64,000 nucleotides of DNA, from NCBI GenBank assembly GCA_963774265.1, contig CAVZDU010000006.1, positions 333,005 to 397,004 of the forward strand. The letters run 5' to 3'. Positions 8,746 through 10,722 of this stretch are shown here, piece after piece (position 1 is the first letter of the stretch; each line of letters opens with the position of its first letter). The stretch is from an uncultured Chloroflexia bacterium (GTDB lineage: Bacteria; Chloroflexota; Anaerolineae; CG2-30-64-16). The notes under the pieces were generated by a model that was not told where the DNA came from, ran no database searches, and saw nothing but the letters and a program-made list of their open reading frames with translations. Both the position numbers and the translations under genes were made by a program.

Positions 8746-9633
8746 TCAATCATCATATCCTTCAGGGTTTTCTCCATCTGCAAGTATAGCCCTGAAATCC
8801 GTTAACGACTGAGCAAAGGAGGTGGGGTCAAACGCGTCAAAACTCCGCTCACGAGGGAGCGTAATACTGAGACAGTGCATTGCCATCCGCACGCGCATGC
8901 GAGATTGAAACGGCTCATCATCTGCGTAACCGACAATTTCTAGAAACCCCCGCCGCAATGGAGGGGGGTAATACCACCAAAGCGTTGCACCGATATCAAC
9001 GGCTGGGTCGTCCAGTGACATAGACTCCAGGTCGATCAGATAGAGTCGCCCGTCAGCCGAGACAAGCCAGTTGGCGTTACAGATATCATTATGCGATGCT
9101 ACCAAACCTGTTCCCAGAGAGCATTGGACTTGTTGGGCCAAATAAGCAAGGCTTTCATCGACGAATTCAGCGACTTCTGGAACGTGTGATTTATAGTGTT
9201 TCCATCTGCGCTGAATGCGGGTTAGCAACTCCAGTCCAACTACGCTGTAGAGGTCGGAGGAGGCTTCGGGGAGAACTCGCTTCACTTCGGGGCTATGATG
9301 TGTTTTGTGGATCGTGGTAGCGATCTTCTCAAGATTGGTGTGATAATCTTTTCGAGAGGGTTTTCTGCCCGCGATGTAGGGTTGAACGACTACGGACGTA
9401 CCATCTGCCAGATACCCAGCCACCAATACCTGGGGCGTCAAACCGAGCGAGGCCATCGCCTCATATCTTGCTGTTTGCGCTCCCAATTTCACGAAGTAAG
9501 TATGCTCGTTGCCGTGTGCGAAGTAGGTTTCGTTTCCGCTCCCCTTGGGAAACGAAAAATCCCAGTGAGTGCTCCCCAAATGCTTCTGAAGGAAAGCCTC
9601 AACTTCTTGCTGATGGCGTTGTCTATCCTGCAT
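8746..9633 (-). CDS. Aminoglycoside phosphotransferase/choline kinase-family protein
   Basis: YFVKLG lysine, HNDICNAN catalytic loop, LIDLE metal-binding motif, DPAVDIG. Confidence 0.8.
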   Translation of the reverse strand: MQDRQRHQQEVEAFLQKHLGSTHWDFSFPKGSGNETYFAHGNEHTYFVKLGAQTARYEAMASLGLTPQVLVAGYLADGTSVVVQPYIAGRKPSRKDYHTNLEKIATTIHKTHHSPEVKRVLPEASSDLYSVVGLELLTRIQRRWKHYKSHVPEVAEFVDESLAYLAQQVQCSLGTGLVASHNDICNANWLVSADGRLYLIDLESMSLDDPAVDIGATLWWYYPPPLRRGFLEIVGYADDEPFQSRMRVRMAMHCLSITLPRERSFDAFDPTSFAQSLTDFRAILADGENPEGYDD

Positions 9634-9639
9634 GGTGAC

Positions 9640-10722
9640 CTAAGTGTCATTCACCGCGTCAAAGCCCGTGGCGATGATGGTGATCCGAATGCTGTCCTCC
9701 ATGTTGGGATCAATAACTGCGCCGAACATGATATTGGCGTCTGGGTCCACGACGCGGCTGATGATCTCGGCCGCTTTGTTGACTTCATGGAGAGTCAGGC
9801 CCGGGCCGCCGGTGATGTTGAACAGGAGGCCATGGGCGCCTTCGATGCTCGCGTCCAGCAGCGCGCTATGTATGGCCTGCTCGGCTGCTGCCTCGGCACG
9901 GTTCTCGCCCTCGCCCTGGCCGATGGCCATCAGGCCCGAGCCTCCGTCGACCATCACGGCACGCACATCGGCGAAGTCCAGGTTGACCAGTCCTGGGATG
10001 ATGATCAATTCAGAGATACCTTGGATGCCCTGGCGCAGCATGTCGTCGGCCAGTGCGAAGGCCTGCTGGACGCTGGTCTTCTTGTCTATCACGTGAAGGA
10101 GTCGATCGTTGGGGATAACGATCAGGGTGTCCACACACTCTTTGAGGCGTTGGATGCCATCCTCAGCCACACGGCGTCGCCGCGTACCCTCGAAGGTGAA
10201 CGGTCTGGTGACTACGCCGACAGTCAATATGCCCCATGCCTTGGCCAGCTCGGCGATCACCGGCGCGGCGCCAGTGCCTGTGCCCCCACCCATGCCGGCA
10301 GTTACGAACACCAGGTCGGTGTCCTTGAGCAGCGCCTTGATGTTTTCGCTCGATTCCTGGGCCGCTTTCTCACCAATCTTCGGGTCGCCGCCCGAGCTGA
10401 GTCCCTTGGTAAGCTTGTCGCCGATGTGCAGTCGCTCGGGTGCATTGGACTGTAGCAGCGCCTGGGCATCGGTGTTGATGGCAATGAGCTTGACCCCCCG
10501 GATACCCTTCTCGATCATCCGATTGACGACGTTTGATCCTGCGCCGCCAACCCCGACCACGGCAATACTTGCGACCTCATCCGCATAATCATGGGTGATT
10601 CTGCGTTGTGAGCCTCGAAATGGACTGGTCGATTCATCCAGCGAGGCCGATGCCTTGATCGATCCCTGCACGCCGCGCTTTGCCGGGGGTCTCTCACTTT
10701 TTGGTCCACCAGACAGTCCCAT
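9640..10722 (-). CDS. ftsZ: FtsZ homolog, orphan, lacking the C-terminal linker and conserved peptide
   Basis: [27 protein letters not shown] tubulin signature, PFTFEG, NLDFAD T7 loop; ends at [20 protein letters not shown] before the ATG at 10722. Confidence 0.9.

Follow-up and report, generated by a model that had tools for sequence, protein, structure and literature searches.

A tail-less FtsZ paralog kept beside canonical FtsZ in filamentous Anaerolineae, and a CcrZ-like kinase gene as its neighbour in one genome

FtsZ2, a tail-less paralog of the division protein FtsZ, is encoded in a stretch of 64,000 nucleotides (the window) from an uncultured Chloroflexia bacterium (GTDB lineage Bacteria; Chloroflexota; Anaerolineae; CG2-30-64-16; GenBank assembly GCA_963774265.1, contig CAVZDU010000006.1, positions 333,005 to 397,004). 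Two open reading frames (ORFs) adjoin there on the minus strand, ftsZ2 upstream and the gene of an APH-fold kinase downstream. On the basis of our results, ftsZ2 is a lineage-specific extra copy of ftsZ, kept by selection beside the tethered FtsZ of the same genome. To judge from aligned sequences, it has lost the docking peptide (for FtsA or SepF), gained a longer basic N-terminus and exchanged G for A in the T1 loop and G for S in the T3 loop; the tubulin signature and the catalytic T7 loop remain. The kinase gene is a separate accessory gene and a chance neighbour, lying 6 bp behind ftsZ2 in the window genome only, and the pairing is probably not an evolved module. With regard to function, the balance of probability leans slightly towards FtsZ2 being a tether-less modulatory subunit that co-assembles with canonical FtsZ, as conserved residues and analogy with other lineages suggest. 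An earlier reading of the window (the original prediction) had proposed that the two genes form an undescribed two-gene system.

The ftsZ2 gene (9640..10722, minus strand; 360 aa and a TAG stop) was recognized by its ORF, by Pfam and TIGR00065 matches and by clade membership. Both globular domains are present (Tubulin PF00091, 171.8 bits; FtsZ_C PF12327, 118 bits), and the protein scored 430.5 bits against the ftsZ equivalog TIGR00065 (cut-off 295.2). The longest frame (9640..10791, minus strand) would encode 383 aa from a TTG, and the ATG at 10722 is the supported start, being preceded by a ribosome-binding site (GAAGGAGG, 10730-10737, minus strand, seven bases before the ATG and identical in the related genomes G004 and G005) and matched by orthologs that begin with the same MGLSG. 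As had been predicted, the tubulin signature GGGTGTG (codons 145-151; 10270..10290, minus strand) and the T7 synergy loop NLDFAD (codons 247-252; 9967..9984, minus strand), the latter the same as in the canonical copy, are intact. The FtsZ2 alignment (A1) has 112 invariant columns that include all GTP-binding and T7 residues; the signature and T7 residues are invariant except T148 and T150 (G145, G146, G147, G149 and G151 in the signature; N247, L248, D249, A251 and D252 in the T7 loop). The T1 and T3 loops of FtsZ contact the GTP phosphates. Alignment of the paralogs placed GLSSGG (codons 107-112; 10387..10404, minus strand) where the canonical T3 loop reads GLGAGG, a replacement already seen in the original prediction, and ten positions were fixed differently between the FtsZ2 and canonical clades, including G61A in T1 and E115K beside T3.

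The two ends of the protein also differ from those of canonical FtsZ. At the N-terminus, 50 residues precede IAVVGVGG (about 18 in canonical FtsZ), so that the N-terminus, whose extension was estimated before at about 48 aa, is about 32 aa longer here; across the 16 clade members examined it is about 35 aa longer. It covers codons 1-50 (10573..10722, minus strand), is basic (8 K/R versus 3 D/E in residues 1-41) and predicted to be disordered, and is kept in the FtsZ2 clade with M1, R16, G20, D45 and A47 invariant in A1. The structure model of FtsZ2 is of low confidence (mean pLDDT 62.5, residues 1-50 below 50) and was used solely for the lack of predicted structure in residues 1-50, where it gave no amphipathic or membrane-targeting helix. 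At the C-terminus, the TAG at 9640..9642 (minus strand) stands 6 codons past IATGF with no linker and no C-terminal peptide after it, which agrees with the early claim of a missing tail, and the tail-peptide motif was found in none of the six frames of window positions 8000-10100.

Exactly two Tubulin-domain matches were found in the same genome, FtsZ2 and a canonical FtsZ, whose gene is the last of an ftsW-murG-murC-murB-ddl-ftsQ-ftsA-ftsZ cluster on another contig (C8) and whose C-terminus consists of a short linker followed by DLDIPAFLRR. In a six-frame search this tail-peptide motif occurred once genome-wide, in the ftsZ of the dcw cluster. The full-length second copy that had been anticipated is therefore present, and the window copy is not the sole ftsZ. 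The two proteins are 70% identical over 337 aa without a gap, and their T2, T4, T6 and T7 loops are identical. FtsZ2 thus carries the two globular domains of canonical FtsZ (TIGR00065) and its full set of GTP-binding and T7 motifs, whereas it has neither of the two marks of a division FtsZ, that is, a linker with C-terminal peptide and a dcw location beside ftsA and ftsQ. No dcw genes adjoin ftsZ2, as had been noted before; its neighbours are the kinase, a MalT-like regulator and a DUF1697 gene. As a side observation, nrdR and a gene for a TSCPD-domain ribonucleotide reductase come directly after the dcw cluster of the window's genome (L003 11337-14373).

FtsZ2 is one member of a distinct group. 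In the protein database, about 20 clusters (at 90% identity) were 76-84% identical to FtsZ2 over its full length including the N-terminus, and the next matches were canonical Chloroflexi/Anaerolineae FtsZs (69-77% identity, covering 84-89% of FtsZ2). The clade was sampled with 16 sequences, the window's FtsZ2 counted. All 16 have open frames and Ser at the first variable position of the T3 loop (GLSSGG, GLSAGG, GLSTGG or GRSSGG), none has the tail peptide, and 9 of them, the window protein included, stop exactly 6 residues past IATGF/L. Since so many members stop at the same place and none has a tail, the FtsZ2 stop is real and not an error. Among the best 120 hits, all 23 proteins with a Ser-type T3 loop were without the peptide and 88 of 97 with a Gly-type loop had it; the peptide was also found in 28/28 canonical FtsZs of the order. 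Two early-branching members, P0124 and P0135 (385 aa), keep a canonical-like linker (..KDTKVTATKETRILKLPGRTYDGEVIDS) and end with ..TYDGEVIDS just before the position of DLDIPAFLRR; they look like intermediates of tail loss. Two further genomes of the class, G025 and G029, also have a second FtsZ (L087 and L088); both copies were considered as candidates of the same kind and ruled out, as they keep the tail peptide.

In a maximum-likelihood tree (LG+C20, 55 rows, no alphaproteobacterial sequence among them), all 16 FtsZ2 sequences grouped together with 100/100 support; the stem of this clade measured 0.18 substitutions per site, with a median terminal branch of 0.036. With starred supports, the clade fell among the canonical FtsZs of the Anaerolineae family to which it belongs and adjoined the canonical FtsZ of another genus (L194), not that of its own genus. 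Thus, the paralog arose from a family-level canonical ftsZ, either by duplication or by transfer between genera, and its tail loss was independent of, and convergent with, that of the alphaproteobacterial paralogs.

The distribution of the clade was then read from genomes. Among 37 genomes of the order, which all belong to one family, three had an FtsZ2-type match of full length (at least positions 1-358, >640 bits): G000, which is the window's genome, G004 and G005. These belong to one genus, in which 3 of 8 species have FtsZ2. A scan of a species-representative genome collection with the back-translated T3-loop motif returned five stretches, of which two match the G004 and G005 loci and three are divergent FtsZ-like genes, 38-50% identical and outside the FtsZ2 clade. 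The scan and the order survey together indicate that the FtsZ2 clade is narrow. Two locus searches gave no new FtsZ2 context: that from the single FtsZ2 protein used over-specific patterns and yielded 22 loci of distant canonical FtsZs, and canonical FtsZs also made up the best 80 of at least 600 rows from that with A1 (the top one, L221, with a GLGSGG loop). In one literature search on FtsZ paralogs in Chloroflexi, no description of the clade was found among the papers listed. The three divergent FtsZ-like genes, from an Opitutales metagenome-assembled genome (MAG) (L311 114-158), a Thermotogaceae MAG (L314 520-564) and an Aerosakkonema cyanobacterium (L315 5001-5045), likewise have Ser in the T3 loop (GLSAGG or GRSTGG); replacement of Gly by Ser at this place may recur as a sign of FtsZ paralogs outside the canonical kind.

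The FtsZ2 genes of G004 and G005 (L085 7205-8335 and L086 7378-8496) form the longest branch of the clade (0.27), with a 23-aa non-homologous tail. In G004 the gene has an M55-peptidase-like gene on one side and a convergent P-type ATPase gene on the other, with no kinase, and in G005 the contig ends within ftsZ2. Two overlapping small ORFs (99 and 189 aa; L086 6591-7164, minus strand) lie between the M55-peptidase-like gene and ftsZ2 in G005 and are absent there in G004.

We also measured the ratio of non-synonymous to synonymous substitutions (dN/dS), which was 0.33, 0.32 and 0.21 in three FtsZ2 pairs and 0.04-0.06 in five pairs of canonical ftsZ, all of them rough values from pairwise NG86 at high GC content of third codon positions (GC3). 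Selection on FtsZ2 thus appears purifying but about five-fold relaxed. One may ask whether FtsZ2 is a slowly decaying or near-neutral duplicate without a selected function. Such a copy would be expected to evolve faster than canonical FtsZ, as it does, to occur in few genomes (it is present in the three species mentioned and none of the rest of the 37 genomes) and to show long branches and motif changes like those of G004 and G005. However, dN/dS is well below 1, the frame is open in every member sampled, the GTP-binding and T7 residues are among the invariant columns of A1, and the derived traits (T3 Ser and the N-terminal extension) are themselves conserved. We consider decay very unlikely, and the earlier expectation of a paralog that is not decaying is borne out by the dN/dS values and by the conserved clade.

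The kinase ORF (8746..9633, minus strand, ATG at 9633-9631, 295 aa) belongs to the APH-like phosphotransferases, as had been predicted: it scored 51.5 bits against PF01636 (cut-off 23.2) and stayed under the cut-off of Choline_kinase (22.9 bits versus 29). Its best NCBIfam match was CcrZ (NF046102, 47.2 bits), below the equivalog cut-off of 400; since the control genomes of Bacillus subtilis and Lactococcus were likewise under this cut-off, the model is narrow. No other gene of the genome matched the CcrZ model. A profile of 37 kinase-family members gave 87.7 bits (E 7.7e-24) for PDB 7s3l and 29.6 bits for the next entry, the choline kinase LicA. With the AlphaFold model of the kinase (mean pLDDT 76), 233 PDB matches were obtained at E≤0.001, with APH-type kinases at their head, and the top Foldseek match was again 7s3l, the CcrZ of B. 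subtilis, formerly YtmP (E 7.7e-11, TM 0.53/0.60, 21% identity). The Brenner motif HNDICNAN (codons 181-188; 9070..9093, minus strand) fits HxDxxxxN and aligns to that of 7s3l, and the Mg-binding Asp is D201 (9031-9033, minus strand). In the kinase alignment (A2), H181, N186, N188 and D201 are invariant, D183 is present in at least 90% and the ATP lysine K49 is conserved. The database holds 960 relatives, and dN/dS was 0.12-0.17 in the 8 closest of 10 comparisons, which indicates strong purifying selection. By its sequence, the protein looks like an active CcrZ/YtmP-like small-molecule kinase of the APH fold, and a distant relative of CcrZ.

CcrZ is thus the nearest characterized relative, which does not make the kinase a CcrZ. 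Both share the APH/choline-kinase fold, a similar size, the Brenner motif and the Mg-binding Asp, whereas the window kinase has an extra C-terminus of about 35 aa. CcrZ/YtmP is conserved in most Firmicutes, whereas the window kinase is rare and patchy in its own class, where a match at E≤1e-40 was found in 2 of 301 genomes, the window genome included. This rarity, the 21% identity to 7s3l and the lack of a recognized trmB neighbour argue against its being a CcrZ. In the part of the source available (PMC8387234), CcrZ of Streptococcus pneumoniae binds FtsZ directly and controls DnaA-dependent initiation, trmB is described as the partner conserved beside ccrZ in an operon in Firmicutes, and no clear mid-cell rings are reported for the CcrZ of B. 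subtilis and Staphylococcus aureus. B. subtilis CcrZ phosphorylates ribose and deoxyribose in vitro, according to the accessible part of another report (PMC9135335).

Whether ftsZ2 and the kinase gene form a module was examined in 50 kinase loci from genomes and in the best 80 of 164 from metagenomes. An FtsZ match was found in none of the 50 and none of the 80, with at least 300 bp of sequence upstream of the kinase start in 49 of the 50 genome loci and 57 of the 80 metagenome loci. The closest relative of the kinase (85% identity) likewise had no FtsZ in its 1146 bp of upstream sequence. Conversely, at E≤1e-10 the kinase was absent from all 40 relatives searched, including both other FtsZ2-bearing genomes, G004 and G005. 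The check for co-occurrence in Chloroflexota that had been suggested therefore shows a real tail-less FtsZ clade whose two other genomes both lack the kinase, and the proposal of an undescribed two-gene system is not supported: tail-less FtsZ paralogs are of an already known kind, and the kinase pairing is not conserved.

Elsewhere, the neighbours of the kinase are heterogeneous (GNATs, methyltransferases, SDRs, aminotransferases and MalT-like regulators). The 50 genome loci gave 96 flanking ORFs, among which no division or replication gene was seen, and the domains found included generic Methyltransf_25/11 and related ones, none of them recognized as trmB. When the neighbourhoods were clustered, the kinase accounted for 49 loci and an antisense ORF for 14, and all other clusters for at most 6. 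A MalT-like regulator lies directly downstream on the same strand in two loci (L059 5767-8523 and L065 4870-7809) and 4-6 kb off in two others (L045 and L048); there may be a loose association between kinase and regulator. In a Chloroflexota MAG, a DarT-Macro fusion (an ssDNA ADP-ribosyltransferase with its antidote domain) stands directly upstream of a kinase homolog (L078 4759-5934). Of the genes to the left of the window kinase, the flavodoxin and MalT-like ones are kept at 77% in another genome of the same genus (G002), and the similarity ends with the MalT-like gene, after which other genes follow. As the contexts differ beyond the MalT-like gene, ftsZ2 and the kinase gene occupy a variable stretch.

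Some points weigh against the view of an accidental neighbourhood. The nearest characterized relative of the kinase binds FtsZ in the pneumococcus, as cited above, and a spacing of 6 bp is tight for an accident. In addition, the downstream context was read for one FtsZ2 ortholog (G004), and about 20 closer metagenomic orthologs are known as proteins. The likeness to an FtsZ-interacting protein leaves a small residual chance of a link in the window genome. Specifically, FtsZ2 and the kinase might be a working pair there, co-transcribed, with the kinase docking on FtsZ2 or FtsZ filaments and coupling the state of the Z ring to replication or to a metabolite signal. The kinase ATG does follow the ftsZ2 stop after the 6-bp spacer GTCACC (9634..9639, minus strand), exactly as first described, a consensus scan of the minus strand showed no promoter-like or terminator-like site between the genes, and the two are probably co-transcribed in the window genome. 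CcrZ is moreover the best PDB match both by profile and by fold, and the kinase is the only CcrZ-model match in the genome and has conserved catalytic residues. All this has to be set against 0/130 other kinase loci with the adjacency, the absence of the kinase from both other FtsZ2-bearing genomes, a T3-loop scan with no further FtsZ2-clade gene beyond G004 and G005, a score of 47 bits where the CcrZ cut-off is 400, the lack of a recognized trmB and of any division or replication gene among the flanking ORFs, and the reported lack of clear mid-cell CcrZ rings in B. subtilis and S. aureus. A working pair therefore seems quite unlikely. A co-fold of FtsZ2 (A1) with the kinase (A2), run without controls, gave a score of 0.00 (mark 0.32) and counts neither for nor against binding.

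A bolder form of this idea, which we regard as very doubtful, is that a CcrZ-like kinase captured into one transcript with FtsZ2 makes a checkpoint pair, in which FtsZ2 would bring the kinase into the Z ring without FtsA and ring assembly would be turned into a small-molecule phosphorylation signal. CcrZ links the pneumococcal Z ring to DnaA in the available part of PMC8387234; if such a pair existed, the CcrZ principle would extend past Firmicutes and a tail-less FtsZ would have an adaptor job. We retain the reading of two separate genes. The case also carries a general caution: where only one genome has the pairing, closely spaced genes and a suggestive relative such as CcrZ are not enough to establish a module.

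The remaining features of the locus are as follows. Downstream, a MalT-like STAND/LuxR regulator gene (5943-8735, plus strand) is convergent with the kinase gene, their stops 10 bp apart; upstream of ftsZ2 lies the DUF1697 gene (10947-11498, minus strand). A promoter-like TTCACA-17-GATAAT (10796..10824, minus strand; 10/12 matches) was found upstream of ftsZ2 in a consensus scan whose number of sites equalled the shuffle expectation. About 70 bp before the ftsZ2 ATG, including GAAGGAGG, are partly conserved among the window (10720-10800), L085 (7130-7207) and L086 (7300-7380), while the flanking genes differ, and ftsZ2 seems to move together with its own leader. Reading these three aligned upstream regions by eye, we saw no evident LexA-type or other palindromic operator before ftsZ2.

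With respect to guanine-plus-cytosine (GC) content, the earlier description of the segment as AT-rich was partly right. It applies to the kinase (51.2%) and DUF1697 (51.3%) genes and not to ftsZ2 (60.3%), which is ordinary for a genome of 62.6% GC. Along the region the fractions are 0.60 for the MalT-like gene, 0.51 for the kinase, 0.60 for ftsZ2, 0.51 for DUF1697 and 0.64 for a cupin gene, so that ftsZ2 is flanked on either side by compositionally atypical genes. The kinase falls among the lowest 0.34% of the genome's 900-bp windows by GC. In 8 of the 10 loci checked (L089-L093, L036, L037 and L123 are those listed), the kinase-family gene was 4-9 GC points poorer than the sequence flanking it; a low GC content seems to go with the kinase family or with its mobility. 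Low GC as sole proof of a recent transfer of the kinase was rejected, because other loci of the family are also GC-poor relative to their flanks.

These figures also bear on a technical explanation, namely that the stop is a sequencing error or the ftsZ2-kinase junction an assembly chimera. The assembly consists of 10 contigs (5.5 Mb, 84% complete, 5.65% contamination), and the junction is marked by a fall of about 9 GC points. However, low- and normal-GC genes alternate along the region, which is not like one chimeric join, the shared stop and the uniform lack of a tail recur across the clade, and no remnant of the tail peptide lies downstream in any frame. An artefact is hardly to be credited. 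No public sequencing run contained over 0.10 of the words sampled, and RNA runs were absent from those listed; in contigs of four public runs, at 80% likeness, only short fragments of relatives were found, with no listed piece across the ftsZ2-kinase junction.

How might FtsZ2 act? That the paralog is conserved, under purifying selection and not decaying makes a non-essential or division-modulating role reasonable. FtsZ2 probably still binds GTP, to judge from its conserved motifs, and it would enter mixed protofilaments with FtsZ1 (here the canonical FtsZ) because the loops of the longitudinal interface are identical in the two proteins. In these filaments it would add subunits without docking sites for FtsA or SepF, and the changed T1 and T3 loops may shift nucleotide turnover. 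As FtsZ2 would provide no membrane tether, the density of tethers and the dynamics of the Z ring would depend on how much of it is present, and its part would be that of an accessory or brake, not of the division motor. The basic N-terminal extension may serve in lateral contacts or in binding a separate partner. It is plausible that tuned ring tethering suits a filamentous organism that must space its septa.

Other results count against this role. Co-polymerization, GTP binding and an effect on division are argued from conservation and from unrelated lineages. At non-synonymous sites FtsZ2 has evolved at about five times the rate of FtsZ1, a difference that would also fit a drifting near-neutral copy, and the G004/G005 branch has altered the tubulin signature to GGGIGTG. 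The conserved N-terminal extension could give FtsZ2 a partner or a place of its own. Along this line, FtsZ2 might form its own filaments with a non-division role, like FtsZm, and be placed or tethered through the extension. The extension is indeed conserved across the clade and travels with the gene, all polymerization motifs are intact, and the truncated FtsZ of Magnetospirillum gryphiswaldense polymerizes alone and serves biomineralization, not division, according to the available part of a preprint (bioRxiv 10.1101/412759). On the other hand, neither a partner gene nor a neighbourhood is seen to be conserved, the contexts of G000 and G004/G005 being different, the extension is predicted to be disordered and without a targeting helix in the low-confidence model, and 70% identity to FtsZ1 makes mixing hard to avoid. 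Separate filaments appear unlikely to us, and the tether-less subunit within FtsZ1 filaments remains our preferred, if narrowly favoured, reading.

Tail-less accessory FtsZ paralogs are an already known kind, of which the FtsZ2 clade is an independent origin in Anaerolineae. In the part of the same preprint that was available (bioRxiv 10.1101/412759), Agrobacterium FtsZ1 is truncated after the GTPase domain, dispensable and able to co-polymerize, and needs full-length FtsZ to reach mid-cell; the truncated FtsZs of Rhizobium meliloti and M. gryphiswaldense are also dispensable for division. Like Agrobacterium tumefaciens FtsZ1 (Atu_4673), Rhizobium/Sinorhizobium meliloti FtsZ2 and M. gryphiswaldense FtsZm, the Anaerolineae protein ends after the globular domains, keeps the GTPase motifs and stands beside a full-length dcw FtsZ. 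It differs from them by its independent origin, and, relative to canonical FtsZ, its clade adds the N-terminus longer by about 32 aa and the T1/T3 substitutions. In the plastid pair FtsZ1/FtsZ2, one paralog is without the C-terminal peptide, and the heteropolymers that the two proteins build together have altered dynamics. The likeness here is to plastid FtsZ1, the paralog of the pair without that peptide, but the plastid pair is ancient, essential and at work in a eukaryotic organelle, whereas Anaerolineae FtsZ2 is young, narrow and apparently accessory. Thus, to the truncated paralogs known in Alphaproteobacteria and plastids, filamentous Chloroflexota add a case of independent and recent origin, in which the steps of tail loss are still visible (some members are without the docking peptide alone, most without the linker too) and every member has the same two changes in phosphate-contacting loops and the new N-terminal tail; these visible steps and common changes make the clade a compact natural experiment on selection after the loss of the FtsZ tether.

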